The translations under genes were made by a program, and so were the position numbers. Below the pieces are notes generated by a model. The model saw only the letters and a list, made by a program, of their open reading frames with translations, was not told the DNA's origin and made no database searches. Shown piece by piece: positions 6,573 to 52,308 of a stretch of 64,000 bases of DNA (positions within the stretch are counted from its first letter, which is position 1; every line of letters begins with the position of its first letter). This DNA comes from Planctomycetota bacterium (GTDB lineage: Bacteria; Planctomycetota; B15-G4): assembly GCA_038212275.1 (NCBI GenBank), contig JBBQUR010000014.1:64001-128000 (forward strand), read 5' to 3'.

Positions 6573-6576
6573 CAGG

Positions 6577-9500: not shown

Positions 9501-11076
9501 TCGCATGAATGGTGTAACGACGCGAGAAACCAACCGAGTTCGGAACGACCTCCTTGTCGAAATCGATCCGGAAGTTGGCGCGTGTGGAGATCAGGTTCGG
9601 GCTGGTCGGGTCGTTGTCCCCGTTCGGCGTCTTGTTGTAGTTGGCCGGATCGATCGCATCCTTGCCCGGGTCGAGGATGTCGATCGAGGGGAGCGACGTG
9701 GTGGTCCCGATCGGAATCGCCGCACCGCGATTGAAGGTCATGTCTGCGGCGCGCGGATCTGCGCCGACCTTGCTCTGGTTGAGCGGGAAGGTGTGGAAGT
9801 ACGGGTTGCTGACCGTCTCGCTCTTGCTGCGGAGACGCGTGAGGTTGAAGGACACGAAGCCCATCGGCGCCGCGAGCGTGTTGCCCGTGGCGGCGAAGTC
9901 GTTCACGGAACCCGGCACCGTGACGTTCGCGCCGAAAACGCGACCGCCGCCGGGCGACAGCGTCGGACTCGGCAGGATGAGCACGCCCGAACTGTCGATC
10001 ACGCCGTTGACGAGCACGGAGCCCGTCGTGGTGATCGAAGCCGGGTCCTCGTTCGCGATGTAGGTGAACACGTTCGGCTTGTTGATCAGCGACCGCGCAC
10101 CGACAGGCACGTTGCTTCCCAGCGGATCGATGGTCGCCAGCGCCGTGCCGGTGAGAGAGATGTACGGCACCGCCGTCACGCCACCGATGACGGCAACACC
10201 GCTCACGTGCCGGTGCACGAAGGTCTCGTCGATGGTGTTGTTCATGTCCCCGCCGGGATGCTGAATCCAGCGCGCCTCGATGAACACGTTGGCGGGCAGA
10301 CTCGTGTCGCTGTCACCGAGGAACGACGTGCTCGCGTTGAAGGCGTTGAAGAGACTCTCGCGATCAAGATCGTACGGGAACACGATCTGGATGAACTGGT
10401 GTTCGTCGGACGAGGAGGGACCGACACCGCTGCCCATGCCGTTGAGCGCGCCCATCGTGTAGGGCAGCGTCGGCAGCTTGGGGACCTGGTTGCCCGGGAT
10501 GTTCGAGAAGAGGCCCGGGCCGCCATCGCCGATGCCGTCGTTGTCGAGGTCACCGGCCGTGTAGCCGTTGAACACGAATCCCATGGGAGGCGCGACGACC
10601 AGCGACACGTTGGGCTGGCCCGAGGTGGTCTGGAAGAGGTCGTAGATGTTGTTGGACGCGAAGATGAGCTCGCCGTTCTTGCCCGGGTCGACTCCGGTGG
10701 TGTAACCGTCGAAGCCCGAGGCCTGCAGCGAACCGCTCGACGGCAGGTTGCCCCAGTCGTTGGTGATGTCCGTACCGCCCGGCTTGCTGATGGCAGCGAG
10801 GAAGTTGCGCTCGGCCACATCGATCGGCGCGACGCTGTCCGGGTTGCCGCCGTTCACCACGTCGACGCGGGCCCAGTCCCCGTTGGTCGCGACCGTCGCA
10901 TACGTGACGACCTCGAGATTGGCCTTCGAGGAGCCGTTGGCGGGCGGTGGCGGCGGCGGCTTCGGACCGCCGCCTCCTGAGCTCCCTCCCCCACCGCCTC
11001 CGCCGCAACTGGTCATGGAGGCCACCGAGATGGCCAGGGCGAAGCCGATGAGCGCGCGCGGAATGCTTCGGGTCAT
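6577..11076 (-). CDS. Giant (1499 aa) lipoprotein with Ig-like segments and a C-terminal YVTN/YncE-type beta-propeller
   Basis: Signal ending MTS-C followed by poly-Gly/poly-Pro. C-terminal repeats LYVSNEGDNSLSVVD, VGTGPRAVCVDPD and VFVLNYLSNTVTIVD. Confidence 0.85.
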   Translation of the reverse strand: MTRSIPRALIGFALAISVASMTSCGGGGGGGSSGGGGPKPPPPPPANGSSKANLEVVTYATVATNGDWARVDVVNGGNPDSVAPIDVAERNFLAAISKPGGTDITNDWGNLPSSGSLQASGFDGYTTGVDPGKNGELIFASNNIYDLFQTTSGQPNVSLVVAPPMGFVFNGYTAGDLDNDGIGDGGPGLFSNIPGNQVPKLPTLPYTMGALNGMGSGVGPSSSDEHQFIQIVFPYDLDRESLFNAFNASTSFLGDSDTSLPANVFIEARWIQHPGGDMNNTIDETFVHRHVSGVAVIGGVTAVPYISLTGTALATIDPLGSNVPVGARSLINKPNVFTYIANEDPASITTTGSVLVNGVIDSSGVLILPSPTLSPGGGRVFGANVTVPGSVNDFAATGNTLAAPMGFVSFNLTRLRSKSETVSNPYFHTFPLNQSKVGADPRAADMTFNRGAAIPIGTTTSLPSIDILDPGKDAIDPANYNKTPNGDNDPTSPNLISTRANFRIDFDKEVVPNSVGFSRRYTIHATPSLGVLFPFNGNSRPVGSPASSIATAHLGSPLASSIYVAVNQPAGISPTSGFTQKVNSPFAKAGGTSTSTKDNGQLFTSTEKSGNGLVPTLMNTLATLPRGVVPCDIYPLNQNNRQAYVVETLVEMPPDVVVTVGVCLPGLGMSFLSRTNRGNQSRSGTVFTGFQGINAVGLGDSGTAFKTAILGNQTVIKVNAGPMDLQGLLAYGGTSVAVDTLVDGVMTNDLTTGGTNVCRTFRVGHDNTYRYVNAPVSPQALYLGYSSGGAGVLDLSGTGYNTNIPGGAALNTTFQNYVEVSRFLPPTLSGSPSKFNFTASGQFKNGDHFRAFGIFGRYTSGGSQGSPSGTESEYAIGKAISTGSLTPTPGINEGSSGYETLVFSGITQNNPATASAILTDDSKVSIVRDMQVGDFLDSVAPFFDPENSNANPQRHRTYNTPGQGAIATNTIADPPFPNPPPLRFPVGLPHTAVIFDQSDVAAAPTLIQGNEVFPGDGFAYFDDSSGVGVQSPQASNGLIQLNPTTNTSNKNAFDIAPLPRAGFQSTFNFATGVATSPKFVQTGPLPKTATAGAVILATRNAAAPGSSGSGGLVPPIYEARQQIGNFLFAADGVNRKLHAINSNTMQVIQSLTLPDPYGLGMSPELDRLYVSNEGDNSLSVVDADPTSATFMTELKRIQVGTGPRAVCVDPDNEDVFVLNYLSNTVTIVDVNSGTVRKTLTDSGLNRPYEMACGMREATNGPAFQSGTYHGYISNYGGNNVLVYQSGPDGTAGIGFDTIVGKVRPNEPVTGQKWKNMFEPRGITYDPNVPLDGFSATVGCFVAHKDENGKALVTRIAYTADTQPGAQTFNIFNTTIGFGTTVFQTKAQYLSSFPAAAAYAVALPDYNRKRFEQEDFASYFNLLNAGATPKQVPLFPRNSKFPLADNILPTFTNGPRWDADRLYLSISGKIIEVFDVANGTHLKTITTPRDVAVMTSFFSQ

Positions 11077-11197
11077 GATTCAGGTCCTTGACGGGTGACG
11101 TGGGATCAAGGCTTCGGGACTCTGTCCCACGAGGGCCGGGGTTGCCCAAGGTGCGCGTGCGGAATGAGGCCTTCCCGCAGCACGGACACTTTAGTCG

Positions 11198-11226
11198 ATT
11201 CTCGTGGTCGCCGTCAGACGAGTCAA
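11198..11226 (-). promoter_or_regulatory. Putative sigma70-type promoter for the lipoprotein operon
   Basis: Minus strand TTGACT-N17-GAGAAT in the divergent intergenic region. Confidence 0.45.
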
Positions 11227-11288
11227 GCCGCGATTGACCCTTGGCGCCGTGATGTAGTCGGCCATCTGCCACCGGTATCATGCGCCCC

Positions 11289-12305
11289 ATGAGCGAGTCT
11301 TCCGGCATCTTTCGCACGCTGAGCACGACGGCGGAGGATGCCGACGGCCCCTTGCGGCCCCGGAGTTTCGAGGAATTCGTGGGACAGGCGCGCGTGGTCG
11401 CCAACCTGCGGACCTGGATCGACGCGGCTCGACAGAGGGGCAAGAGCCTGGACCACGTCCTGCTCTCGGGGCCGCCCGGCCTCGGCAAGACGACGCTGGC
11501 CAACCTCGTGGCCAGCACGCTCGGCTGCCCGCTCAAGCAGACGTCGGGCCCCGCGCTGGAGCGTCCGGGTGATCTCGTCGGACTGCTCACCGGCCTGGCC
11601 GCCGGTGACGTGCTCTTCGTGGACGAGATCCACCGCATGCCGCGCAGCGTCGAGGAATACCTTTACGCCGCGATGGAGGACCTCGCGGTGGACGTGGTCA
11701 TCGACCAGGGCCCCGCGGCGCGCTCCGTCCGCCTGACCGTCGCGCCGTTCACGCTCATCGGTGCGACGACTCGCGAAGGGCTGCTGACGCACGCCTTCCG
11801 CTCGCGCTTCGGAGTCGTCGAGAAACTCGTGCCGTATCCGGCGCAGGACATCGAGGCCATTCTCAAGCGCTCCGCAGCGCGCCTCGGTTGCCGCCTCGAC
11901 GACGACGCCGCCGGACTCGTGAGCGAACGCAGCCGCGGTGTGCCACGTGTCGCCAATCGACTCCTGCGCCGTCTTCGCGACGTCGCCGACCTCGAGAACG
12001 AGGGGCACGTCACGCGCGCCGTGGTCGAGCGCGGTCTCGGCATGCTCGGCATCGACGCCCTGGGTCTGGAGGACATGGATCGCCGCCTGCTGACCGCACT
12101 GCTGACGCTCGGCGGCGGCCCCGCCGGCCTCAAGACGCTGGCCGTCGCGGTCGGAGAGGAAGAGGACACGCTCGAGCAGGTCTACGAGCCGCATCTCATC
12201 CGCCTCGGCTTCCTCAAGCGCACGCCCCGAGGCCGCCAGCTCACGGACGCCGCGCGCCTCCACCTCGGCGCCGCAGGCGCGGCATCCGGACTCTTCCCCG
12301 CGTGA
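11289..12305 (+). CDS. ruvB: Holliday junction branch migration helicase RuvB
   Basis: LRPRSFEEFVGQ, GPPGLGKTTLA, FVDEIHR, GATTR, YEPHLI..TPRGR. ATG 11289 is preferred over 11280 because TATCAT lies 7 nt upstream. Confidence 0.97.
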   Translation: MSESSGIFRTLSTTAEDADGPLRPRSFEEFVGQARVVANLRTWIDAARQRGKSLDHVLLSGPPGLGKTTLANLVASTLGCPLKQTSGPALERPGDLVGLLTGLAAGDVLFVDEIHRMPRSVEEYLYAAMEDLAVDVVIDQGPAARSVRLTVAPFTLIGATTREGLLTHAFRSRFGVVEKLVPYPAQDIEAILKRSAARLGCRLDDDAAGLVSERSRGVPRVANRLLRRLRDVADLENEGHVTRAVVERGLGMLGIDALGLEDMDRRLLTALLTLGGGPAGLKTLAVAVGEEEDTLEQVYEPHLIRLGFLKRTPRGRQLTDAARLHLGAAGAASGLFPA

Positions 12306-39345: not shown

Positions 39346-39977
39346 CGCAGGCGCCCGCTGGCAGGGTCGGTGCGGGCGTCGAGCGCCGCGCGCAGGTCGG
39401 CCGCGGCCGTGCGCGGATCGTGCGCGTCGGCGATCGCGCGGATGACGGCGACGCCGGCGAGGCCCGCAGGCAGCGCCGGCACGTCGGCCGCGCTCAGGCC
39501 GCCGAGCGCGAACACCGGCGTGGAGGCGCAGCGAGCGAGCACCGAGCGCACTTGATCGTCGCGCAGCAGCGGCCGGGGCCGGCTGAGATGCGTCCCGCGG
39601 AAGGGCGAGAGCAGCAGCAGGTCGGCGGCCAGGTCCTGCTCCTGCAACGGCCAGTGCGCCGAGCGGCCGATGACAAGCCGCGGCGCGCGTTCCCGCACCT
39701 CGGTGACGGGCGCGCCGTCGAAGCCGAGATGCACGCCGTCGGCGCGGCAGGCGAGCGCCAGGGCCGTGTCGGTGTGGATGAACAGCCGGGCGCCGCTGCG
39801 GCGCACCGCGGCCGCCAGTGCATGAGCGAGTCCGGCGCGTGCTGCCTTGTCGAGCTGCCGCTCGCGCAGCAGCAGCAGCTTCGCGCCGCCATCGAGGGCA
39901 GCCCCGGCCAGCCGCAGCGTCTCCGTGGGCGCCCGCGTGCCGGGCGTGATGAACAGCAGCCCGGCCGGCGCCGTCAG
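39342..39977 (-). CDS. Thiamine-phosphate synthase/TenI-like TIM-barrel protein (probable CTG start)
   Basis: LLFITPG, ALDGGAKLLLLRER, ADGVHLG, IGRSAH, PVFALGGL, GVAVIRAI. Homology extends upstream of the GTG at 39806. Confidence 0.78.
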   Translation of the reverse strand: MTAPAGLLFITPGTRAPTETLRLAGAALDGGAKLLLLRERQLDKAARAGLAHALAAAVRRSGARLFIHTDTALALACRADGVHLGFDGAPVTEVRERAPRLVIGRSAHWPLQEQDLAADLLLLSPFRGTHLSRPRPLLRDDQVRSVLARCASTPVFALGGLSAADVPALPAGLAGVAVIRAIADAHDPRTAAADLRAALDARTDPASGRLR

Positions 39978-42145
39978 GACGGTTCGCCTTCAAGGAACAC
40001 GCCGAGCGGTTCGAGCAGAGCGGCGAGCCGCGCGCGCGGCAGTTCGGGGGACATGAGCAGCGCCGTCGGCGACAGGCGCTCGATCACGAAGGGCCGCAGG
40101 GCGGGGTCGTGCAGCACGCGGTCGAGGACTTCCTTGTTGCGGCCGCGCACGAGCGACACTGTGGCCTGCGTGACGAACTTGACCTTTCCGGCCCACTGGC
40201 CGATGGAGTAGATCACGTTCTGCGGCACTTCCACGCGGCTGTGCTCGGACAGCGTGCGCAGGATGGAGGCGGGATCGAGTCCCTCCGCGACGGCCTTCTC
40301 GACCGACGCGACGGTGATGCGGTAGCGATAGACGGAGTCGCTGGCCGTGCGCTCCGCGAACCGGTCAAGTTCCGTGACGAGGTCGTAGGTGCTGCCGTCC
40401 GGGAACAGCATGATCTCGAAGTCGGGGTTGACGATCAGCGGCGAGCTGCGGTCGAACTCCGACTCCGGAACGACCATGCCCAGCGCCTTGGCGCCGAGAG
40501 CCGTGAGCCGCAGCAGGCCCGGATTGCCGTCCACGTCGGCGATGTCGATCAGCCCGAAGAGGAAAAGGCGCTCCCGCGCCCACGTCGTGAGCGCCTGAGC
40601 AAGCTGATGCGGGTCGCGCATGCCGGTCTGCTGCGCGAACTGGTAGCGGCTCTGGAAGCGGTCGCGCACGCCGAAGAGGTCGAGGTTGGCGAGATAGCGA
40701 TTGCGCGCGGCGAAGGCCGGTGCGTGGATGTCCACCCAGGTGTTGATCTTCAGCTCGCGCAGCCGGTCCAGATACAGCGCGAGCAGGCGTTCGCCGTGGA
40801 AGGGCTCGACCTCCAACACCCAGTGCCGGTCCGCGAATTTCAGCAGCCGCGAAAGCTTCTTCTCGAGCGGCGTGCGGTCCCAGCTGCGGCCCTTCACCGT
40901 GAGCACCACGCTGCGGTCCGGGCCGCGCTCGAGCATCGACTGCGCCTGGCTGAACTCGAACAGGTATTCGAAGAGCCACGCGCCGGTGAAGCCCGAGCTG
41001 TGACCCAGGATGAAGGACTCCTCCAGCTTGCGAACCGCCGTGCGGTAGACCTTGCCGGACAGCGTGAGCCGGATCGGGTTGTGCTCGACGTAGGAGAGGA
41101 AGGCCGACACGTCGGAGATGAGGTCCACGCCGAGGCTGTGCGCCGCGGAGATGCGCGGCTGTTCCGGCGCAAGGCAGGCGCGCATGGCGCCGACCAGCTC
41201 TTCGAAGACCACGACGACCTCATCGAACTGGTGCACGCCGTATTCGCCGAGCGAGACGTGGCGCACGGTGCCGAGCAGGTTGCTCTCGAGCGCATCCTGG
41301 AGCAGCTTGCGATTCCAGCGCCCGAGACTCTTGTGATTCTTCTCGAGCATCGTGCGACCGGCGACGCCGCCATAGGAGCACACCACCAGCTTGAGCAGCT
41401 CGAGGTGCCGCGGGTTGTCGATGCGCGCGAGGCGCTGCGCCACCGAGGCAGGCTCGGCCAGCCGCAGCGCCGCCTGCGCGTGCTCATCGAGATGCGATGA
41501 GGTGGCGGAACGCGGCACGTCGTCGCCGGCGCTGCCGAGGTGCAGCGTCAGCAGGGCCGACAATTCCTTGCGGTCCACCAGTCGCGTGAGCTGTCCGAGC
41601 AGAGTGAAGGTTTCCTCCACCGTGCGATCGTCGTCCCAGATGAACGCCTGCAGCAGGTCGCCCAGCTCGCACGGAACGAGGTAGCTGTCGCCGCCCGGGC
41701 CGCCGGAGGGGTCGGTGTGGGCTGGCGGGCGCGGCCCGGGCTGGCCGTTGGCGTCACCGTTCGAGGTCGTCGAGACGAAGAGGAAGCCGCGCTTGAGCAG
41801 CGCGTTGATCGCGGCCTTCAGCTCGAAGGGCGACAGGTAGCCGAAGGAGCGGCTGCCTGTCACGTTGACGAGGTCCGCGCGGTAGCCCTCGCCACGCAGG
41901 AAGAACTTCAGCAGGTCCACCAGCTTCTTGGACAGGAACTTGACGCGCTTGCGGACCGACTTCTCGGACGACATGCGCCTCTGGAGTTCGCCGATGAGGC
42001 GCTCCGTGGTGTCGGGCTCCGGGCCGTGCCCGTCCCAGAACGAGAGCAGCTCGCGCAGCTCCTGCGGCGCCCGGTTCTGGAGCGCTGCCTGCAAGGCGAC
42101 GCCCCTCACGGCCGCATGCACTGTCGTGATGTCCCGCTCGACCAC
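39974..42145 (-). CDS. Helicase-associated protein with a C-terminal XPB/Ssl2 N-terminal-like (Helicase_C_3) domain; p52/Tfb2-like
   Basis: PLIVNPDFEI...LDRFAE...YRYRITVASV..AVAEGL...LSEHSRVEVPQNV aligns with the N-terminus of the neighbouring XPB. No Walker motifs seen. Confidence 0.82.
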   Translation of the reverse strand: MVERDITTVHAAVRGVALQAALQNRAPQELRELLSFWDGHGPEPDTTERLIGELQRRMSSEKSVRKRVKFLSKKLVDLLKFFLRGEGYRADLVNVTGSRSFGYLSPFELKAAINALLKRGFLFVSTTSNGDANGQPGPRPPAHTDPSGGPGGDSYLVPCELGDLLQAFIWDDDRTVEETFTLLGQLTRLVDRKELSALLTLHLGSAGDDVPRSATSSHLDEHAQAALRLAEPASVAQRLARIDNPRHLELLKLVVCSYGGVAGRTMLEKNHKSLGRWNRKLLQDALESNLLGTVRHVSLGEYGVHQFDEVVVVFEELVGAMRACLAPEQPRISAAHSLGVDLISDVSAFLSYVEHNPIRLTLSGKVYRTAVRKLEESFILGHSSGFTGAWLFEYLFEFSQAQSMLERGPDRSVVLTVKGRSWDRTPLEKKLSRLLKFADRHWVLEVEPFHGERLLALYLDRLRELKINTWVDIHAPAFAARNRYLANLDLFGVRDRFQSRYQFAQQTGMRDPHQLAQALTTWARERLFLFGLIDIADVDGNPGLLRLTALGAKALGMVVPESEFDRSSPLIVNPDFEIMLFPDGSTYDLVTELDRFAERTASDSVYRYRITVASVEKAVAEGLDPASILRTLSEHSRVEVPQNVIYSIGQWAGKVKFVTQATVSLVRGRNKEVLDRVLHDPALRPFVIERLSPTALLMSPELPRARLAALLEPLGVFLEGEPS

Positions 42146-42504
42146 ATATTGATCCCGGGGTGCAGAATCTGAGGAGTCTAAGAGATCCTCGGGCCCAGCG
42201 GGAGGGGTTACCGGCCGGATCGCGGAGCCTGTTCCGCAGCGAGCCCTGCCCTCGCGTCCCGATCATCGCTGAGCGACCCGGGCTGTCCGCGGCCGGAATC
42301 CCGGCCCGCACCCGAGGTCGGCCTCAGCAGCGAGCAGCGCCCGAGATCTCCTCGAACCGTGGCCCCGGGGCCCACTCCCGGCCCCGCCGGCCCGGCCGCA
42401 CCGGGCCCTCTCATGCGGGCGCAGCCTGCCAGCCCTCGCAACAGCCCCCACGCCGCGCGCCCCGTGCGCTGACGACGCCGAACTCCCGCAGAGCCCGCCC
42501 ACCT

Positions 42505-42584
42505 CGCAGCCTTCGGCGGCGCCCCGCCGCCGAAGGCTGCGGGCTCTCGCGACATCGCCCGGCTACAGCCGGGCGATGTCGCGA
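42505..42584. terminator. Two adjacent perfect hairpins at the XPB 3' end (possible terminator or processing signal)
   Basis: 17-bp arms at 42505-42521/42525-42541 and 18-bp arms at 42547-42564/42567-42584. No U-tract, so the function is uncertain. Confidence 0.5.
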
Positions 42585-44242
42585 ATCTCGTACGTATATC
42601 CCTGCTCGGTGAGGAAGAGCTGGCGGTTGTTCGCGAAGTGTTCCTCGCGGCTGTCGCGGGTCACGATGGAATAGAAGATCGCCGGGCGCTTGTCGGACTT
42701 GGGGCGCAGGATGCGGCCGAGGCGCTGAGCTTCCTCCTGCCGGCTGCCGAAGGTGCCCGAGACCTGGATGGCCACGTTGGCATCGGGCAGGTCCACCGCG
42801 AAGTTGCCGACCTTGCTCACCGCGAGCAGCTTCAGGTCCCCGTCGCGAAAGCGTTTGTAGAGGTCCTCGCGCTCTTTCGTCGGCGTGCGTCCCGAGATGA
42901 GCGGGCAGCCCAGTTCGCGCGCCAGCTCGTCGAGCTGGTCGAGGTACTGGCCGATGATGAGCACGCGGTCGTCCTTGTGGCGTTCGACGAGCTGGCGCAC
43001 GGTCGTGAGCTTGTCGGGGTTCTCGCTCGCGATGCGGAACTTGTCGCGGCTGCCGGCCTGCTGGTAGGTGAAGCTCGCCTCGGTCACCAGCGGCAGGCGC
43101 ACCTCCACGCAATGCGCCGTGGCGATCCAGCCCTGCCGCTCCAGGATCTTCCACGGCACGTCGTACTTCTTGGGGCCGATGAGCGAGAAGACCTCGTCCT
43201 CGTGGCCGTCCTCGCGCACGAGCGTGGCCGTGAGCCCGAGCCGTCGCCGCGCCTGGATTTCCGCCGTCACGCGGAACACCGGTGCGGGCAGCAGGTGCAC
43301 TTCGTCGTAGATGACCAGGCCCCAGTCGCGCGCGGAGAAAAGCGCGAAGTGACCGAACTCGCCGGTCTGGCGGCGGCGATACGTGAGCATCTGGTAGGTG
43401 GAGATGGTCACGGGGCAGACGGCCTTGCTGTCGCCTGTGTACTCGCCGATCTGATCCTCGCCGAGCGTGGTCTTGTCGAGCAGCTCCGTGCGCCACTGCC
43501 GGACGGCGATCGTGTTCGTCGTGAGGATGAGGCACTGCGTCTGCAGCCGGTGCAGGCAGCCGATGCCGACGACGGTCTTGCCCGCGCCGCACGGCAGCAC
43601 CACGACGCCGCTGCCGCCCTTCTCGGTGCCGCCCGCGTGGAAGACGTCCGCGGCCTCCGCCTGGTACGGGCGCAGGCCGAAGGGGCCGCCCGAGCCGAGG
43701 CAGGTCTCGCGCAGCGCGAAGGGCAGCGCGGCGCCCGAGGTGTAGCCGGCGAGATCCTCGACCGGATAGCCGATGCGGATGAGCGCCTGCTTGACCTCGC
43801 CGCGCAACGCCTCGTGCACCGTCAGGCCGCCCGGCACCGGTCGCCCGCGATCGAAGAAGCGCTTGAGCTGCGTGTCGCCGCCGATGCGCGCGAGCAGCGC
43901 GCTGTCCGGCGACACGAGCACGAGCGCCTCGTCCTGCCGCTGCAGGCGCAGGAGGCCGAAGCGCCGGATGTTGTCCTCGATGTCGCGCTCGACGTTGGGC
44001 GGCACCGGATAGCGCGATTGCTCGGTGAGGAAGCGGATGATGCGCTCGGCCGACAGTCCCGCCGCGGCGGCATTCCAGATGGAGAGCGGCGTGATGCGGT
44101 AGGTGTGCACGTGCTCGGGACTCTTCTCGAGCTCCGCGAACAGCGCGAGCATGTCGCGCGCCTCGACGTAGCCGTCGGCGTGCACCTCGGCGAGGATGGT
44201 GCGGTCCCCCTGGACCGTGAGCGGACGTCCGCTGCCGTTCAC
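42563..44242 (-). CDS. Bacterial XPB/Rad25 (ERCC3-like) SF2 DNA helicase
   Basis: SGVVVLPCGAGKT, DEVH, GLTATLVREDG (RED motif), LIGPKKY, QRLGRILRPK. GTGA overlap with the uvrA stop. Confidence 0.95.
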   Translation of the reverse strand: MNGSGRPLTVQGDRTILAEVHADGYVEARDMLALFAELEKSPEHVHTYRITPLSIWNAAAAGLSAERIIRFLTEQSRYPVPPNVERDIEDNIRRFGLLRLQRQDEALVLVSPDSALLARIGGDTQLKRFFDRGRPVPGGLTVHEALRGEVKQALIRIGYPVEDLAGYTSGAALPFALRETCLGSGGPFGLRPYQAEAADVFHAGGTEKGGSGVVVLPCGAGKTVVGIGCLHRLQTQCLILTTNTIAVRQWRTELLDKTTLGEDQIGEYTGDSKAVCPVTISTYQMLTYRRRQTGEFGHFALFSARDWGLVIYDEVHLLPAPVFRVTAEIQARRRLGLTATLVREDGHEDEVFSLIGPKKYDVPWKILERQGWIATAHCVEVRLPLVTEASFTYQQAGSRDKFRIASENPDKLTTVRQLVERHKDDRVLIIGQYLDQLDELARELGCPLISGRTPTKEREDLYKRFRDGDLKLLAVSKVGNFAVDLPDANVAIQVSGTFGSRQEEAQRLGRILRPKSDKRPAIFYSIVTRDSREEHFANNRQLFLTEQGYTYEIRDIARL

Positions 44243-47200
44243 GTGCGTGCTCCGCGCCGGCCGCGCGGCCTGCCTTTGCCGAGGCCCGCTGCCGCGTCGA
44301 CTCCGCCCGGGAGCACCGGCGCCGCGCGAAGGAAGCGGCCGGTGTGGCTCTGCGCGCAGGCCGCCACGGTCTCGGGTGAACCCGCGACGACGAGCTGTCC
44401 GCCTCCGGCCCCGCCCTCGGGACCGAGGTCGATGACCCAGTCGGCCGACTTGATGACGTCGATGTTGTGCTCGATGACGACCACCGTGTTGCCCTGCTCC
44501 ACCATGCGCTGAAGCACGACCAGCAGGCGCGCGACGTCAGACATGTGCAGGCCCGTCGTGGGCTCGTCAAGCACGATCAGGGCACGCCCCGTGCCGGGGC
44601 GACCGAGCTCGGCCGCGAGCTTGACCCGCTGGGCCTCGCCGCCCGACAGCGTCGTCGCCGGCTGCCCGAGCTTCAAGTACCCGAGCCCCACTTCGTCGAA
44701 GAGCGCGAGCTTGCGATGGATGCCCGTGTGGCCCTCGAAGACTCCCAGCGCCTGGTCCACCTCGAGGTCCAGCACGTCGGCGATCGAGAGCCCCTTCCAG
44801 CGCACCTCGAGCGTCTGGCGGTTGAAGCGCCGCCCGTTGCAGCTCTCGCACGGCAGCTGCACGTCCGAGAGGAAGTGCATCTCGATGATCTCGACGCCGC
44901 GGCCCTGGCAGGTTTCGCAGCGGCCGCCCGCGACGTTGGAGGAGAAACGCCCGGCGAGGAAGCCGCGCATGCGCGCCTCGGGCGTCGACGCGAAGAGCGC
45001 GCGGATGTCGTCGAAGGCCCCGCAGTACGTGGCGGCATTGCTCGTCGGCGAGCGCCCGAGCGGCGACTGGTCGATCTCGAGCAGCCGGTCGAAGCAGCTC
45101 GCCCCGTCGATGCCGTCGAGCTTGATCGCGCCCTCGCCAAGGCCCTCGAGCTGCGCGCGCACCGCCGGCACGAGCAGCCCGGACACGAGGCTGGACTTGC
45201 CCGAGCCGGACACGCCGGTCACCACCGTGAAGAGCCCGGCGGGGAAGCGCACGTCGAGCCCTGCGAGGTTGTGCAGGCGCGCGCCACGCAGCTCGATCCC
45301 CTGCGCTCCCGGCTCGCGGCGGGCGCGCGGCTCCACGCGCAATGCCCCGGACAGCCAGCCGCCCGTCACCGAGTCGGGGTTGGAGAGCAGCGCGGACGGC
45401 GTGCCCTGCGCCACGATGCGTCCGCCCCGCGTGCCCGCGCCGGGCCCCACGTCGATGACGTGGTCCGCGGCTTCGATCGTCTGCTGGTCGTGCTCGACGA
45501 CGAGGATGGTGTTGCCCAGGTCGCGCAGCTCGCGCAGCGTGTCGAGCAGGCGCCCCTGGTCGCGCGGATGCAGGCCGATGGACGGCTCGTCCAGCACGTA
45601 GAGCACGCCGACGAGGCGGTTGCCGAGCTGACTGGCGAGGCGGATGCGCTGCGCCTCGCCACCCGAGAGAGTGGACGCGGGCCGGTCGAGCGACAGGTAG
45701 TTCAGACCCACGTTCACGAGGAAGCCGAGGCGATTGCCGATCTCGCGCAGCACATCCACGGCGATGTGGCGCTCGTGGGCGGGCAGGTCCAGCGCATCGA
45801 ACCATGCGCGCGCGTCTCCTACCGTGAGCTCGGCGACCTGCCGGATGTTGAGGCCGCCGACGGTGGTCGCGAGCGCCGCGGGCCGCAGGCGTCCGCCCTT
45901 GCAGCTCGGGCATGGCCCGACGTGCAGCAGCTCCGTGAGCGCGGCCTGCCACCAGCCGTCATTGCCCGCGCTGCGCCACCAGCCCTCCACCGTGGTGAGC
46001 AGGCCATCCCACTCCACGCGGTACTCGTAGCTGCGCGACTGGCCGGCGCTCTTGCGCGCATAACTGACCTCCACCGGGGCGCGCACGCCCGTGCCGCGCA
46101 GCGCGGCGGCGCGGAACTTGGCCGGCAGCGATTTCCACGGATCACGCAGTTCGACGTCCATGGACTCCGCGAGGCGCACCAGCACCTGGCGCTGCAGGCT
46201 GTCGGGCCGCGCCAGGAATTTCCCGACGCGCGAATTCATCGCGCCGCCGAACAGAGGCCGGCCCGGGCTGTCGATGAGCCGCTTCTCGTCCGCGACCTGC
46301 TTGCTTCCCAGTCCCTCGCAGGTCTCGCACGCGCCGGCGTGGCTGTTGAACGAGAACATGCGCGGCGAGAGCTCGCCTTCCAGCGCCGTGCCGCAGCGCG
46401 CACAGGCGGCGCGCGCCTCGTAATCGATCGTGCTGCCGTCGGCGAGGTGGGCGCGCGCGAGGCCAAGTCCGCGCTGCTGCGCCGAGGCCAGCGCCTCGGC
46501 GAGGCGCGCGCGGTGTGCGGCATCCGCACTCGTGCGATCGATGATCAGTTCGACGCTGCGCTGCGCCGACACCTCGGGCAAGGCGTCGAGCCGCACCTCG
46601 ACGCCGTCCAGTCGCGCGCGCACGAAACCGTCCTTGCGCAGCTCGGCGGACAGCGCCGCGATCTCGTCGGGGCGCGTGAGCGCCGTGCGGTGGTTGTGCT
46701 CGGCGCTCCACAGCGGCGCGGCGATGACCACCTTGGCGCCGCCCGCACGCGCGACGAGGTCCGCGGCCGCCGCCGAGGCACTCCAGGCCTTCAGCTCGCG
46801 TCCGCAGGTCCAGCAGTGCGGATGACCGACGCGCCCGAAGAGCAGGCGCAGATAGTCGTGCACCTCCGTGGTGGTCGCGACCGTCGAGCGGGGATTGCGC
46901 GTGGAGGTCTTCTGGTCGATGGCGATGGCTGGCGCCAGTCCGTCGATGGAGTCCACCGGCGGGCGGTCCATGCGCTCGAGGAAACGCCGCGCATACGTGG
47001 AGAGGCTCTCGACGAAGCGCCGCTGCCCCTCGGCGAAGATCGTGTCGAAGGCGAGGCTGGTCTTGCCCGAACCCGACGGCCCGGTGACCACCGTGAGCTT
47101 GCCGTGCGGCACGGTGACGTCCACGGACTGCAGGTTGTGCAGCGAGGCCCCGCGCACGACGAGGTCATGGCCGACCACCGCCGCCTCGGGCGACTTGCGC

Positions 47201-50058
47201 TTCGGGCGGATGGACGCCTTGCGCGGCAGCAGCACGGAAGCCAGCGCGCGCCCGGTGTGCGAGGCCTCCACCGCGAGCACCTGCTCCGGCGTGCCCACGG
47301 CCACGATGTGGCCGCCATCGCGGCCGCCCTCGGGGCCGAGATCCACGATCCAGTCCGCCACCTTCATCACGTCGAGGTTGTGCTCGACGACGATCATCGA
47401 GTTGCCGGCGTCGATGAGCCTCTGCAGCGCGGACAGCAGCACGGCGACATCCTCGAAGTGCAGGCCCGTCGTCGGCTCGTCGAGGATGTAGAGCGTGCGC
47501 CCGGTGCTCGGCCGCGCGAGTTCGCTGGCCAGCTTCATGCGCTGCGCCTCGCCGCCGGACAGCGTCGTGGACGGCTGCCCGAGCTGCACGTAGCCGAGGC
47601 CGACGTCGAGCAGGGCGTCGAGGACGCGCCGGATGCGCTTGTGATGCTCGAAGAAGGCGGCCGCCTCGGTGACGGTCATCGCCAGCACGTGGTCGATCGC
47701 CCGGCCGCGGTACAGGACCTCCAGCGTCTCGGTGTTGTAGCGGCGCCCCAGGCACTGCTCGCACGGCACCTCGACGTCCGCGAGGAACTGCATCTCGATG
47801 GTGTTCACGCCCGCGCCCTGGCAGGCCTCGCAGCGTCCGCCGGACACGTTGAACGAGAAGCGCCCCTTCGGATAGCCGCGCACCTGCGCTTCGGGCGTGC
47901 CGGCGAACACGTCGCGGATCAGGTCCATGAGGCCGGTGTAGGTGGCCGGGTTGCTGCGCGGCGTGCGGCCGATCGGCAGCTGGTCGATCTCCACGACCTT
48001 GTCGATGGCTTCGATGCCGGTCAGCGAGGAGAAGCTGCCCGGTGCGTCTTCCGCGTGGTGAAGCTTGCGCGCCAGCTCGCGCTTGAGCACGTGGTCCACC
48101 AGCGTGGACTTGCCCGAGCCCGACACCCCCGTGACCACCACGAGGCAGCCCAGCGGGAACTCGACGCTGATGTTCTTGAGGTTGAACTGATCCACGCCCG
48201 CGAGCGTCAGGAATTTGCCGTTGCCCGGGCGCCGCTGCGTCGGCACTTCGATGCGCCGGCGGCCGAGCAGGTAGTCGGTGGTCGGCGTGGGCGGACCGGC
48301 GAGCACATCGTCGATCGGGCCGCAGGCGAGCACGTGGCCGCCGAGGCTGCCGGCGCCCGGCCCGAGATCCACGATGGAGTCGCTCGCGCGGATCGTCTCC
48401 TCGTCGTGTTCGACGACGAGCACCGTGTTGCCGCGATCGCGCAGCGCGTGCAGCGTGTCGATGAGCCGGCCATTGTCGCGCGGATGCAGGCCGATGGACG
48501 GTTCGTCGAGCACGTAGAGCACGCCCTGCAGGCCCGAGCCCACCTGGCTGGCCAGGCGCACGCGCTGGCTCTCGCCGCCCGAGAGCGAGCGTGCCTCGCG
48601 GTCGAGGCGCAGATACGGCAGCCCCACCGCCTGCAGAAAGCCGAGCCGGCTCCCGATCTCCTTGACGAGCTGGCGTCCGATGGCGGTCTCGCGCGGATTG
48701 AGTTCCAGCGCTGCGAACCACGCGACGGCATCCTCGACGGAAAGCGCGGCGAGCTCCGTGATGGGCACGTCGCGGAAAGTCACCGCGCGCGCCGCGGCAT
48801 TCATGCGGCTGCCCTTGCACTCCGGACAGACGGCCGCGGAAAGAAAACGCTCCGCGGCCGCATGGCCGGGCGTGCTCGCTGCGCGTGCGATCGCGGGCAG
48901 GATGCCTTCGAAGGGCTTCGTGTCCTTGCCGCGCACCTCCTTGCCGCCGTCCTGCGACTTCCAGCTCCACTCGAGCGTGACCTCGCGCGTGCCCGATCCG
49001 TGCAGCAGCACGTGGCGCGCGCGCGCCGGCAGGTCCTTCCACGCCTTGTCCAGGTCGATGTCGAAGGCGGCGGCCACGGCCGCGAGGCTCTTCGGTCCCA
49101 GTCGCACGTAGCCGAGGTAGCCGCTGCGATCCATGATCTTCAGCGCGCCGTTGCGGATGGACAGCCGGTCGTCGGCGATGAGCTTGTGCGCGTCGGGCTG
49201 CTGCGTGCTGCCGAGGCCGTCGCAGTCGGGACACGCGCCGTGAGGCGAGTTGAACGAGAACAGCCGGGGTTCCAGCTCCGGGAAGTCGCCGTGGCCGTCG
49301 GGGCAGGTGTTGGCGGTGGAGAAAGTCTCCGCGCTGCCGTCGTCGCCGCGCACGACCAGGAAGCCGTCGCCCAGCACGGCGGCGGATTCGATGGCCTCGG
49401 CGAGGCGCGCGCGGCGCTCGAGGTCGGGCTTGAGGCGGTCCACGACGAGCTCGATCGTGTGGCGGCTGTTGCGGGCCAGTTCGATCGGTTCGTCGAGGCG
49501 GCGCTCGGTGCCGTCGATCCACGCGCGCGTGAAGCCCTTGAGCAGCCAGCCCTGAAGATCCTTGCGGTACTCGCCCTTGCGATCGCGCACCACCGGCGCC
49601 AGCACGGCGATGCGCCGGCCGGCGTGCTTATGGAGGACGGTGTCCACGATCTGGTCGAGCGTCTGGCCCGAGACGCGCGCACCGCACTCGGGACAGTGCG
49701 GCGTGCCGAGTCGCGCATAGAGCAGGCGCAGGTGATCCCACACCTCGGTGATGGTGCCCACGGTCGAGCGCGGGTTCCTGTTCACCGTCTTCTGGTCGAT
49801 GAGCAGCGTCGGCGAGAGGCCGTCGATGCGGTCGACCTTGGGCTTCTCCATGCGCCCGAGGAACTGCCGCGCGTAGGACGAGAGGCTCTCGACGTAGCGG
49901 CGCTGGCCCTCCTGGTAGATCGTGTCGAAGGCGAGACTGCTCTTGCCCGACCCGGACACGCCGGTGATGGTCGTGAGCGCGAGGCGCGGGATGGTCACGT
50001 CCACGTGCTGCAGGTTGTGCTCGCTCGCGCCGCGCACGACGATGTCGTTGAGCGTCAT
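44239..50058 (-). CDS. uvrA: Excinuclease ABC subunit A, tandem-fused double-length form (1939 aa)
   Basis: Four Walker A motifs (GVSGSGKSS, GVSGSGKST, GPSGSGKTS, GVSGSGKSS), four LSGGExQR signatures, Zn fingers in both halves; junction near 47170-47230. Confidence 0.97.
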   Translation of the reverse strand: MTLNDIVVRGASEHNLQHVDVTIPRLALTTITGVSGSGKSSLAFDTIYQEGQRRYVESLSSYARQFLGRMEKPKVDRIDGLSPTLLIDQKTVNRNPRSTVGTITEVWDHLRLLYARLGTPHCPECGARVSGQTLDQIVDTVLHKHAGRRIAVLAPVVRDRKGEYRKDLQGWLLKGFTRAWIDGTERRLDEPIELARNSRHTIELVVDRLKPDLERRARLAEAIESAAVLGDGFLVVRGDDGSAETFSTANTCPDGHGDFPELEPRLFSFNSPHGACPDCDGLGSTQQPDAHKLIADDRLSIRNGALKIMDRSGYLGYVRLGPKSLAAVAAAFDIDLDKAWKDLPARARHVLLHGSGTREVTLEWSWKSQDGGKEVRGKDTKPFEGILPAIARAASTPGHAAAERFLSAAVCPECKGSRMNAAARAVTFRDVPITELAALSVEDAVAWFAALELNPRETAIGRQLVKEIGSRLGFLQAVGLPYLRLDREARSLSGGESQRVRLASQVGSGLQGVLYVLDEPSIGLHPRDNGRLIDTLHALRDRGNTVLVVEHDEETIRASDSIVDLGPGAGSLGGHVLACGPIDDVLAGPPTPTTDYLLGRRRIEVPTQRRPGNGKFLTLAGVDQFNLKNISVEFPLGCLVVVTGVSGSGKSTLVDHVLKRELARKLHHAEDAPGSFSSLTGIEAIDKVVEIDQLPIGRTPRSNPATYTGLMDLIRDVFAGTPEAQVRGYPKGRFSFNVSGGRCEACQGAGVNTIEMQFLADVEVPCEQCLGRRYNTETLEVLYRGRAIDHVLAMTVTEAAAFFEHHKRIRRVLDALLDVGLGYVQLGQPSTTLSGGEAQRMKLASELARPSTGRTLYILDEPTTGLHFEDVAVLLSALQRLIDAGNSMIVVEHNLDVMKVADWIVDLGPEGGRDGGHIVAVGTPEQVLAVEASHTGRALASVLLPRKASIRPKRKSPEAAVVGHDLVVRGASLHNLQSVDVTVPHGKLTVVTGPSGSGKTSLAFDTIFAEGQRRFVESLSTYARRFLERMDRPPVDSIDGLAPAIAIDQKTSTRNPRSTVATTTEVHDYLRLLFGRVGHPHCWTCGRELKAWSASAAAADLVARAGGAKVVIAAPLWSAEHNHRTALTRPDEIAALSAELRKDGFVRARLDGVEVRLDALPEVSAQRSVELIIDRTSADAAHRARLAEALASAQQRGLGLARAHLADGSTIDYEARAACARCGTALEGELSPRMFSFNSHAGACETCEGLGSKQVADEKRLIDSPGRPLFGGAMNSRVGKFLARPDSLQRQVLVRLAESMDVELRDPWKSLPAKFRAAALRGTGVRAPVEVSYARKSAGQSRSYEYRVEWDGLLTTVEGWWRSAGNDGWWQAALTELLHVGPCPSCKGGRLRPAALATTVGGLNIRQVAELTVGDARAWFDALDLPAHERHIAVDVLREIGNRLGFLVNVGLNYLSLDRPASTLSGGEAQRIRLASQLGNRLVGVLYVLDEPSIGLHPRDQGRLLDTLRELRDLGNTILVVEHDQQTIEAADHVIDVGPGAGTRGGRIVAQGTPSALLSNPDSVTGGWLSGALRVEPRARREPGAQGIELRGARLHNLAGLDVRFPAGLFTVVTGVSGSGKSSLVSGLLVPAVRAQLEGLGEGAIKLDGIDGASCFDRLLEIDQSPLGRSPTSNAATYCGAFDDIRALFASTPEARMRGFLAGRFSSNVAGGRCETCQGRGVEIIEMHFLSDVQLPCESCNGRRFNRQTLEVRWKGLSIADVLDLEVDQALGVFEGHTGIHRKLALFDEVGLGYLKLGQPATTLSGGEAQRVKLAAELGRPGTGRALIVLDEPTTGLHMSDVARLLVVLQRMVEQGNTVVVIEHNIDVIKSADWVIDLGPEGGAGGGQLVVAGSPETVAACAQSHTGRFLRAAPVLPGGVDAAAGLGKGRPRGRRGART

Positions 50059-50879
50059 GACGGCGTCCCCTGCGCGGGGGATCCGGCGGGCTGCCGGCCC
50101 GCGAGCACCGCGAGGATGTCCGCGTGCAGGCCGGGTCCGCAGGCCACGGCCGAGCGACCGTGCAACCAGTCGTCGCCACCGGTCATGTCGGTCACGAGGC
50201 CGCCGGCCTCGCGCACGAGCAGCGCTCCCGCCGCGACGTCCCAGGGCGAAAGGTGCGGCTCCCACAGGCCATCGAGCCGACCCGCGGCCACGTAGGCCAG
50301 GTCCAGCGCCGCGCTGCCGCAACGGCGCATGCCGCGCACGCGCAGCACCATGTCGGCGAAGTGCCCCACGTTGTTGTCGGCCAGTTCGCGGCGCTTGTAG
50401 GCGAAGCCCGTCGCGAGCACGCTCTCGATGAGCGTGCTCTTGCGCGAGACCGCGAGGCGACGGCCGTCCAGAGTCGCGCCAAGGCCTGCTGCCGCCGCGA
50501 AGGTCTCACGCAGGCGCGGCGCGTGGACGACCGCGGCCAACGGACGCGGCCCGTCGTAGCAGGCGATGGAGACCGCGAAGAAGGGGTGCGCCTGGCTGAA
50601 GTTCACCGTGCCGTCGAGCGGGTCGATGTACCAGGTCGGGCCGGCGAGCGCCGTGTCGTGCACTTCCTCCTCGGCGCAGATCGCGTGACCGGGCCAGCGG
50701 GCCCGCACGCGCTCCACGATGAGCCGCTCGGACGCGACGTCCGCGTCGGTCACGGGATCGATCGCGCCCTTCATCCGCGGCGGCCGCGGAAAGGGAGCGT
50801 CGTGCGCCAGGAGCACCTCGCCCGCGGCGTGCGCCGTGTCGACGGCAAAGGCGAGAAGGGCTGCAGGATCGAGGCTCAC
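50055..50879 (-). CDS. suhB: Inositol monophosphatase family protein
   Basis: VTDAD, AEE, WYIDPLDGTVNF, RRCGSAALDLAYVAAGR, PWDVAAG. Confidence 0.9.
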   Translation of the reverse strand: MSLDPAALLAFAVDTAHAAGEVLLAHDAPFPRPPRMKGAIDPVTDADVASERLIVERVRARWPGHAICAEEEVHDTALAGPTWYIDPLDGTVNFSQAHPFFAVSIACYDGPRPLAAVVHAPRLRETFAAAAGLGATLDGRRLAVSRKSTLIESVLATGFAYKRRELADNNVGHFADMVLRVRGMRRCGSAALDLAYVAAGRLDGLWEPHLSPWDVAAGALLVREAGGLVTDMTGGDDWLHGRSAVACGPGLHADILAVLAGRQPAGSPAQGTPS

Positions 50880-50886
50880 GGCGGTC

Positions 50887-52308
50887 TCAGGATCGATCGA
50901 AGAGGGCGCGACAGATCGAATCCTGGATCGCCTTCATCTGTCCGTTGTCGTACTTCGACTGGTAGTCGTTGATGAGGATGGAGAACGCATAGGTGCGTCC
51001 CGAGCGCGAACGCACATAGCCCGAAAGCGTCGACACGCCATGGATGAAGCCGGTCTTTGCGCGGACCGCACCTCGGTAGGGTTCGTCGGTGAGGCGATTT
51101 TCGAGCGATCCGTCGCTGCCCGAGACGGGCAGCGCGCGCAGGTAGGTGTCGCGCACCGCCGCCGGCGCGTGCTCCATCGCCACCAGCGTGTCGGTGAGCA
51201 GCCGGGCCGTGACGCGATTGCCCGGCGAGAGTCCCGAGCCATCGCGCAGCACGACGCCCCCGAGCGGCGTGCCCACCTGCCGCGCCAGGAAGTCAGCCAC
51301 CGCCGCCGTGCCGCTGGCGAACGAACCGACCTGACCGCCGCGCGCCCCGAGCAACTTCACCAGATGATCGCTGATCGAGTTGTCGCTTTCCTTGAGCGCG
51401 ACCACGACCGCGTTGCCCAGCGGCGTCTCGAGCGACTGCAGCTGCACCGGATCCCGCAGCGCGGCCGCCGCGCCAGGACCGAAGGCCAGCCCGCCATCGA
51501 TGACCAGGCCGCGTGCAGCCGCCTGCGCCAGCAGGCAACGCCCGGCGAAGTCCGACGGGTCATGCACCGGCACGCCGAAGTTGCGCAGACCCACGGAGCG
51601 CCCGATCTCGCCTTGCACGCGCACGACGCCCTGCTCGTCGGGAATCACCGCTCCGACCTTGCACAAGGTCGACTTGTCGGCGAGACGCAGCTCGTTGCGG
51701 ATGCGGTACCCGCTCGCCTCCGTGATGAAGCGCACCGTCGGCGAGGCGCCGCCGTCCACCTGATATTCGAGCACGTTGCCGTGCAGCGACAGTGCCCCGA
51801 TGGGAGCGCCGTACGTGGACTGCACGTCACCCGCCGGCCAGTCGGGGTGCACCCATTCGTGATCCATGAGACCGTCGTCGATGACCAGCCTGCCGGTGAT
51901 GCGGCGCACGCCCGACAATTGCGCGAGATCGATGAGCAGCGCGGCCGGATCCTTGACGCGTTCATGCGCCAGCAGGTCGGCGCGCAGGCACGGGTCACCG
52001 CCGCCGACGACGATGAGGTCGCCGTGCAGCACCCCGTCCGCATCGGGGCGACTGGCGGCCACGAGGCGCGTCGTGAAGTGGTAGTCGGGTCCGAGCAGCG
52101 TGAGCGCGGCCGCCGTGGTGAGCAGCTTCATGTTGCTCGCCGGTGCCAGCGGCTCGTCGATGTGCCGCGCGAAGACGCGCTCTCCGGTGCTCGTGTCCAC
52201 CACGGCGATCGCGACGTGGGCGCCCTTGAGCTCGGGCCGTCCGAGTGCCGCCTCGATGCTGTCTCCGGGAGCCGTCAGCGTGAGGCAGGTGAAGAGCAGC
52301 GCGAGCAT
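50887..52308 (-). CDS. dacB: D-alanyl-D-alanine carboxypeptidase/endopeptidase PBP4 (peptidase S13)
   Basis: PASNMK (SxxK), GGGDP, SDN (SxN), DGSGLS, AKTG (KTG). Confidence 0.95.
   Translation of the reverse strand: MLALLFTCLTLTAPGDSIEAALGRPELKGAHVAIAVVDTSTGERVFARHIDEPLAPASNMKLLTTAAALTLLGPDYHFTTRLVAASRPDADGVLHGDLIVVGGGDPCLRADLLAHERVKDPAALLIDLAQLSGVRRITGRLVIDDGLMDHEWVHPDWPAGDVQSTYGAPIGALSLHGNVLEYQVDGGASPTVRFITEASGYRIRNELRLADKSTLCKVGAVIPDEQGVVRVQGEIGRSVGLRNFGVPVHDPSDFAGRCLLAQAAARGLVIDGGLAFGPGAAAALRDPVQLQSLETPLGNAVVVALKESDNSISDHLVKLLGARGGQVGSFASGTAAVADFLARQVGTPLGGVVLRDGSGLSPGNRVTARLLTDTLVAMEHAPAAVRDTYLRALPVSGSDGSLENRLTDEPYRGAVRAKTGFIHGVSTLSGYVRSRSGRTYAFSILINDYQSKYDNGQMKAIQDSICRALFDRS

Follow-up and report, generated by a model that had tools for sequence, protein, structure and literature searches.

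What XPB does in bacteria has been an open question since the 1990s, and the XPB of Mycobacterium tuberculosis alone is a poor helicase. In this study, we analyzed a 64,000-nt stretch of DNA from a Planctomycetota bacterium (assembly GCA_038212275.1, contig JBBQUR010000014.1; hereafter the window, to whose positions all coordinates refer), in which a gene for a double-length UvrA is followed, on the same strand, by a gene for an XPB helicase and by a further gene whose product, here called the partner, carries a domain resembling the N-terminal domain (NTD) of XPB. In TFIIH, the clutch of human p52 (residues 306–399) has the fold of the XPB NTD and pairs with the XPB NTD, according to the available part of one report (PMC6422496). 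In archaea, the XPB gene lies beside a dedicated partner gene (available part of PMC13024598), and XPB pairs with the nuclease Bax1, which binds its thumb and HD2 (available parts of PMC13024598 and PMC7672443). As for bacteria, the accessible portion of a 2012 paper on M. tuberculosis (PMC3353954) states that p52 homologues were not found and that no partner complex of bacterial XPB was identified.

XPB and the partner are a near-obligatory gene pair across the phylum. We surveyed the surroundings of XPB genes in an evenly drawn sample of the phylum (set 1), where 141 of 301 genomes proved to contain an XPB gene, 135 of them with a match over the cut-off. The XPB gene with 9 kb on either side was taken for 140 of the 141 matches scored over the cut-off, from 133 genomes; left out were the match G143:C260, eight listed matches under the cut-off, two unlisted matches and the window's own match. 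Loci were regarded as informative when they offered at least 2.5 kb downstream (126 loci) or at least 1.5 kb upstream (125 loci), and uvrA was regarded as linked when it was located upstream of XPB, on the same strand and at a distance of no more than 500 bp. A partner gene was located downstream of XPB, on the same strand, at 117 of the 126 loci (92 detected by tblastn, and 25 by a hidden Markov model of the family on the clutch region of the next open reading frame only). The spacing between the two genes had a median of –4 nt, and they overlapped at 45 of 70 loci. At one of the nine loci without a detected partner (L130), a Helicase_C_3 protein is encoded on the opposite strand, and in a close relative (L142:2750–6960) a 4.2-kb insertion containing a gene for an FG-GAP repeat protein lies between XPB and the partner.

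The helicase gene of the window encodes a complete, motif-intact bacterial XPB. Its product matched the NCBIfam model NF045503 'DNA repair helicase XPB' at 842 bits (cut-off 610) over residues 7–553 of 559, and contains the Pfam domains Helicase_C_3 (residues 8–127), ResIII, Helicase_C and ERCC3_RAD25_C. The motifs LPCGAGKT, YDEVHLL and TLVREDG, which we take to be superfamily 2 helicase motifs and the XPB RED motif, are present in the translation and are invariant or nearly so across 21 aligned XPBs. Comparison with eukaryotic XPB chains gave 281–287 bits, and comparison with archaeal chains gave 117–152 bits. Like the XPBs of M. tuberculosis and Kineococcus (NF045503), the protein consists of an NTD and a helicase core without the eukaryotic C-terminal extension. 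In contrast to what was stated for the XPB of M. tuberculosis, a conserved gene for a partner is documented here, and one clade has the pair in an operon together with uvrA.

We further analyzed the partner, the GTG start of which is in accordance with an alignment of 19 homologues. Pfam recognised a single domain in it, Helicase_C_3, that is, the XPB NTD, at residues 570–691 (71 bits, cut-off 34). In hhalign comparisons, residues 565–723 aligned to residues 3–166 of XPB with a probability of 97.6% (E = 3.6e-12), which rose to 98.8% for the isolated segment. These results bear out an earlier note on this DNA, made from the sequence alone, which had described an XPB-N-terminal-like domain in the next co-oriented gene. 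When a profile of the window family was searched against PDB sequences, the human XPB NTD alone was matched (E = 1e-5). On these profile comparisons, the approximately 160 C-terminal residues of the partner are paralogous to XPB's NTD, and this protein is a credible docking subunit for XPB.

The remaining N-terminal part of the partner, approximately 565 residues, showed neither internal repeats nor any resemblance to the XPB NTD or anything else tested in segment-wise hhalign comparisons, and Pfam detected neither an N-terminal winged-helix region like that of p52 nor a Tfb2_C/p8-binding module in the partner. A language-model look-alike search with residues 1–560 returned Tfb2 clusters at 0.82–0.83, where the lead level is 0.9, and TP_0021_N at 0.94. 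Given that archaeal XPB pairs with Bax1 and that this long region lacks a fold recognisable by sequence, the partner might be read as a nuclease, and the pair as a Bax1-like helicase–nuclease machine. However, no nuclease or Bax1-type family was found in the partner by Pfam (E ≤ 0.01) or NCBIfam, both of which gave Helicase_C_3 as its sole family at E ≤ 0.001, nor in 20 relatives by Pfam (E ≤ 1), and the partner carries a paralogue of the XPB NTD, whereas Bax1 binds elsewhere on XPB. We therefore consider this explanation very improbable; what the window shares with the archaeal arrangement is an XPB gene beside a dedicated partner gene.

The partner belongs to a large family. Close homologues of approximately 700 aa are encoded in metagenome-assembled genomes of Planctomycetota and, if they bear a name, are listed as 'helicase-associated domain-containing protein' or 'hypothetical'. 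An exhaustive profile search of cluster representatives yielded 3234 matches at E ≤ 1e-3, of which 1390 also passed E ≤ 1e-10 and 157 passed E ≤ 1e-30. Distant relatives of 750–940 aa are homologous over partner residues 217–715 (hhalign, 100%), and contain two repeats of the clutch type, often followed by WYL at the C-terminus; the two repeats and WYL are combined in P0214, P0232, P0233, P0235 and P0237 and in the homologue at locus L182, at least one of these being from Chloroflexota. The last ~110 positions of Pfam Tfb2, which correspond to the clutch region, were matched by 12 of 17 scanned distant relatives at E ≤ 0.1, two of them above the curated cut-off, and a profile of the distant relatives matched human p52 (residues 330–446) and yeast Tfb2 (residues 332–405) among PDB sequences at E = 2–3e-4. 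A search with the alignment of the distant family yielded 80 metagenome loci; at 12 of these XPB was adjacent to the family member, located downstream of it, and uvrA and gyrA were adjacent in none.

There were also examples with other neighbors. A distant homologue of the kind with two repeats and WYL lies between an intein-containing dnaB and XPB (L182:5696–8407), and two tandem clutch-domain proteins of 826 and 795 aa are encoded beside recO with no XPB within 8 kb (L199:6552–13153); because of the latter pair, the clutch-domain family is wider than the partnership with XPB. Some longer reading frames were considered as fusions of XPB and partner and were rejected: P0067 (1216 aa) has a garbled XPB C-terminus and looks like a frameshifted read-through, and the long open reading frames in L124, L128 and L135 arise artefactually from another frame across the XPB gene.

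That uvrA, xpb and the partner gene are linked is a genuine and ancient feature of one large clade of planctomycetes, in which uvrA and xpb, and in most cases the partner gene as well, are packed closely with 4-nt overlaps of stop and start. In the window, the 1939-aa UvrA and XPB genes share a 4-nt GTGA overlap of stop and start, read in the sequence as ...cacGTGAacg..., just as the earlier note had reported. In set 1, a linked uvrA was present directly upstream of XPB at 38 of the 125 loci informative on that side, 37 of which reached at least 500 bits (the doubtful one is L014), and all 35 uvrA-linked loci that were informative on both sides contained the full trio. Linkage occurred in 12 of 40 family codes and was all-or-none per family, being present throughout f1 (7/7), f2 (5/5), f3 (2/2), f7 (7/7), f14 (4/4), f45 (3/3), f48 (2/2) and f72 (4/4), and absent throughout f27 (0/10), f56 (0/11), f57 (0/9) and f51 (0/6). 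A second set comprised 40 loci of species-representative genomes found with the partner alignment (set 2; approximately 15 of the 40 are on the same contigs as set 1), which are labelled Planctomycetota, Phycisphaerales or Phycisphaeraceae apart from one Pseudohongiellaceae and two 'bacterium'. The order double uvrA–XPB–partner was present at all 36 informative loci of this set, and the other four have XPB at a contig edge. The same operon is present in a cultured relative, the record of which (L165) is labelled Phycisphaera mikurensis. Thus, the gene order that the earlier note had singled out is conserved in relatives. The overlap of uvrA and XPB measured exactly 4 nt at 23 of 37 set-1 loci and at 18 of 21 non-duplicate set-2 loci, and was kept down to approximately 55–60% XPB identity; of the other set-1 loci, ten had overlaps of another length, for which the start assignment is uncertain, and four had gaps of 5–68 nt.

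The gene directly upstream of XPB varied among the 125 loci: uvrA at 38, a suhB-like gene at 16, gyrA at 12 and other genes at 59. The suhB-like gene was found upstream of uvrA at 15 of the 30 uvrA-adjacent loci with room for it, and immediately in front of XPB, uvrA being absent from between the two, at its 16 loci in families f27, f57 and f36 (for example, L015 and L035). This distribution suggests an older suhB–xpb arrangement that either gained uvrA by insertion or lost it. The 12 gyrA loci, detected by tblastn on the same strand as XPB (f25, f51, f75, f82 and f87), raise a different possibility, namely that XPB and the partner form a torsion-generating translocase of double-stranded DNA whose function is tied mainly to supercoiling, the linkage to uvrA being secondary. 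Of 20 representatives of families without uvrA linkage, six had GyrA as the gene directly upstream according to Pfam (L049, L076, L104, L113, L116 and L123), the order gyrB–gyrA–XPB–partner was observed in L049 (3584–13715), L076 and L123, and XPB has been described as a translocase generating torsional strain in the available part of PMC13024598. However, linkage to gyrase is rarer than linkage to uvrA and is absent from the window locus, and gyrBA is itself a housekeeping operon, so that conserved neighborhood without shared function has to be reckoned with here as well. A role tied to topology accordingly seems quite improbable.

The UvrA of the window consists of two complete units in one open frame. 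TIGR00630 matched full-length twice (1260 and 1117 bits, cut-off 729.8), PRK00349 scored 2463 bits (cut-off 1147), and Pfam assigned one UvrA_inter (PF17760) and one UvrA_DNA-bind (PF17755) domain to each half. The presence of the UvrB-binding and insertion domains separates this protein from UvrA2-type paralogues. The halves are 48% identical (468/968), and the translation contains the Walker A motif GxSGSGKS/T four times and the LSGGE signature four times, as expected of two ABC ATPase modules in each unit. A double-length UvrA is also represented by NF001885/PRK00635 (1809 positions; presumably a chlamydial protein), which likewise has two UvrA units in one chain. However, the window protein scored 1279 bits against this model, far under its cut-off of 3054, and is therefore not the same lineage-specific equivalog.

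We also compared UvrA in 10 other genomes of the phylum. Five had single-length UvrA only, two had a full double, two had a form of approximately 1.5 units, and one had a single-length copy with a split extra copy. Since one of the two full-double genomes lacks XPB and half of the 10 genomes have single-length UvrA only, the fused form is not tied to XPB. Conversely, uvrA linked to XPB was the double-length form in set 1 wherever sequence room allowed. The architecture of UvrA thus differs greatly within the phylum (G200, G264, G008 and G003), and G200 has two separate doubles. In L090 (4245–9146) and L101, both of family f84, an open reading frame of approximately 1600 aa directly upstream of XPB is partly UvrA-like (325–345 bits), with approximately 2.2 kb of other sequence between the UvrA-like part and XPB, and may derive from UvrA by divergence or rearrangement.

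The assembly (4.65 Mb, 40 contigs, 91% complete) contains the other genes of canonical nucleotide excision repair. As the earlier note had stated, neither uvrB nor uvrC lies in the window; the two genes are side by side on contig 4. A gene for Mfd is located on contig 3, two UvrD-type helicases and one AddA-like gene are encoded in the genome, and the fused gene is the sole UvrA found. No match to DEAD_2 (XPD/DinG) was obtained in the 91%-complete assembly, and Helicase_C_3 is confined to XPB and the partner. The canonical set is therefore complete, and TFIIH-like content is limited to XPB and one clutch-type domain. With no UvrA besides the fused one and no XPD/DinG detected, no Uvr component appears to be replaced. 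The earlier note had proposed an alternative pathway mixing Uvr and TFIIH-like parts; this proposal was supported in part only, as the gene order is conserved but nothing in this gene content suggests mixing by necessity. That co-encoding reflects a hybrid Uvr/TFIIH pathway is unlikely in our estimation.

The explanation that we favor, to which as a whole we assign a probability of roughly 0.55, is that a Phycisphaerae-type planctomycete has here, on its chromosome, a conserved operon of housekeeping character, comprising the suhB-like gene, uvrA, xpb and the partner gene, and that the operon-encoded XPB and partner assist damage processing beside ordinary excision repair. UvrA is the organism's sole, canonical damage sensor and is made as a single-chain tandem 'dimer'. 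Because the p52 clutch is folded like the NTD of XPB and pairs with it, we infer that the partner docks on the NTD of XPB, by analogy with the pseudo-symmetric heterodimer of XPB NTD and p52 clutch in TFIIH, through which XPB is recruited and tuned; the result would be a two-subunit translocase of double-stranded DNA. This complex would be made from the same message as UvrA and would most likely aid damage processing alongside UvrABC, Mfd and UvrD, for instance in that DNA at a lesion is opened or cleared, without replacing any Uvr component. In a more specific version, the heterodimer of XPB and clutch protein would, in Phycisphaerae-type planctomycetes, be a dedicated accessory of the single-chain UvrA, a 'mini-TFIIH' that is recruited to UvrA-marked lesions and opens or remodels DNA for UvrB; we regard this version as unlikely.

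Several observations weigh against the favored explanation, some concerning the partner and others the linkage to uvrA. With regard to the partner, none of 20 sequences (the partner and 19 aligned relatives) matched Pfam Tfb2 (PF03849) at E ≤ 1. The label 'p52-like', which the earlier note had given to the partner, therefore stands as far as the clutch-type domain is concerned and fails for the protein as a whole; judged by sequence, it is justified for the docking domain only. The comparison with TFIIH XPB–p52(–p8) is limited in the same manner. The same XPB NTD and a second protein with a same-fold copy are found in both, whereas the window partner lacks a Tfb2 match and has an N-terminal 565 aa unrelated to anything tested, no XPD/DinG-type helicase accompanies it in the assembly, and the window pair is co-encoded with a bacterial UvrA. 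Moreover, no fused XPB–partner protein was found in a search for longer homologues, which is weak evidence. In the window itself, a 417-nt spacer with a strong hairpin parts XPB from the partner.

This spacer is an outlier, since gaps of at least 300 nt between XPB and partner occurred at just 3 of 70 related loci. A perfect GC-rich hairpin with an 18-bp stem is located at approximately 42505–42541, 20 nt past the XPB stop, and the fold of the whole spacer had a z-score of –2.3. Because it has no T-tract, the hairpin is not a classic intrinsic terminator. Consensus scans of the spacer found no promoter-like site and four terminator-like sites, compared with 3.2 expected, and Rfam gave no match. 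The sequence is unique in the genome except for the hairpin, one similar hairpin being located on contig 7, and is not conserved among close relatives.

With regard to the linkage, the pair of XPB and partner occurs away from uvrA at 87 of 125 loci, and therefore XPB function does not require linkage to uvrA. Furthermore, in a tree of 137 XPB sequences the uvrA-linked and uvrA-near leaves were contiguous (last common node with support 0.97 and 61 leaves, 13 of them unlinked), which fits an origin of the linkage in one or two events, as opposed to many independent ones. The uvrA-linked block also keeps unrelated genes, namely the suhB-like gene and the S13 peptidase, which recurs upstream, and a thiL-like gene, which was found downstream of the partner at 19 of 31 informative uvrA-adjacent loci (all of f1, f2, f3, f7 and f21). 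In the window, an ATGA overlap couples the suhB-like gene to the uvrA start in the same manner as uvrA is coupled to XPB, and hence an overlap alone is weak evidence of shared function. The earlier note had taken the coupling of uvrA and XPB as a sign of a shared pathway; the linkage proved to be conserved, whereas the unlinked loci, the unrelated neighbors and the suhB-like overlap speak against that step.

These observations could indicate synteny without shared function, in which XPB and the partner would be an independent translocase module, acting in replication restart, removal of R-loops or roadblocks, or other repair, that happens to lie in an old housekeeping block. The occurrence of distant partner homologues beside DnaB or RecO, and never near uvrA at the 80 metagenome loci, points in the same direction. 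Because of the unrelated genes in the block, much of the conservation is inherited synteny, although the trio outlasts its flanks: the thiL-like gene was present in none of f14, f48, f72, f5 and f44, yet the trio persists there. The retention of the 4-nt uvrA/XPB overlap at the identity level given above also argues against synteny as the whole explanation, as does the negligible chance that uvrA would be placed within 500 bp of XPB in a genome of 3–9 Mb. Synteny without shared function is thus possible rather than probable in our assessment.

In addition, we considered that a UvrA-like ATPase and a helicase might together form an anti-phage defence module, because the PADLOC model mad3 matched UvrA at 552 bits and PbeA matched XPB weakly (80 bits, C-terminal helicase part only). 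This reading was rejected and seems hardly conceivable: UvrA is the genome's sole, full-length, equivalog-level UvrA, the partner has no PADLOC match, the neighbors are housekeeping genes, and the locus is vertically conserved across families. The mad3 match reflects homology to UvrA, and the locus is a conserved core region.

The coordinates of the locus are summarized in Table 1. Six housekeeping genes (S13 peptidase, suhB-like, uvrA, xpb, partner and thiL-like) all lie on the minus strand of the window, whose G+C content is approximately 70%. The frame of the thiL-like gene is open, with high third-position G+C, for approximately 210 codons before the first recognisable ThiL residues (39352–39993), and overlaps the partner stop. 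Elsewhere in the window, positions 6001–12000 have a G+C content of 0.65–0.67, compared with approximately 0.71, and contain a 1501-codon open frame on the minus strand (6577–11079).

Table 1. Positions of the genes and other features of the uvrA–xpb–partner locus in the window
Feature	Position	Strand	Remarks
S13 D-Ala-D-Ala carboxypeptidase	50887–52308	–	
suhB-like inositol monophosphatase	50055–50879	–	Pfam Inositol_P 202.6 bits; TGA stop overlaps uvrA ATG (ATGA)
Tandem-fused double UvrA, 1939 aa, ATG start	44239–50058	–	TIGR00630 twice; unit 1 at ~47164–50058, unit 2 at ~44239–47163
Bacterial XPB helicase, 559 aa, GTG start	42563–44242	–	NF045503 842 bits; start overlaps uvrA stop
Non-coding spacer between xpb and partner gene, 417 nt	42146–42562	.	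GC-rich hairpin inside
XPB partner, 723 aa, GTG start	39974–42145	–	Single Pfam domain, Helicase_C_3
C-terminal XPB-NTD/p52-clutch-type domain of the partner, residues ~565–723	39977–40453	–	Pfam and hhalign
thiL-like gene of the AIR-synthase family	downstream of partner	–	

Bacterial XPB and fused UvrA are known kinds of protein; what is new here is the conserved partner gene and the clade-specific operon with uvrA. In our literature search, outside which subscription journals lay, neither a p52-like partner for XPB in bacteria nor an operon of uvrA and XPB was found described. A near-obligatory partner with a copy of the XPB docking domain is a concrete candidate for the missing activator of XPB, and suggests that the 'clutch' arrangement of XPB and p52 in TFIIH has a bacterial counterpart. 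Similarly, an overlap-packed operon with the sole UvrA provides a first genomic hint of the pathway that bacterial XPB may serve in this lineage. If the linkage is mere synteny, what remains of the finding would be a useful annotation for a protein family that is widespread and uncharacterised. If, on the other hand, the heterodimer does act as a 'mini-TFIIH', the docking principle of XPB and p52 would predate eukaryotes or be shared with bacteria, and would be approachable in a three-gene operon. The main value of these results is that the question of bacterial XPB function becomes experimentally approachable.

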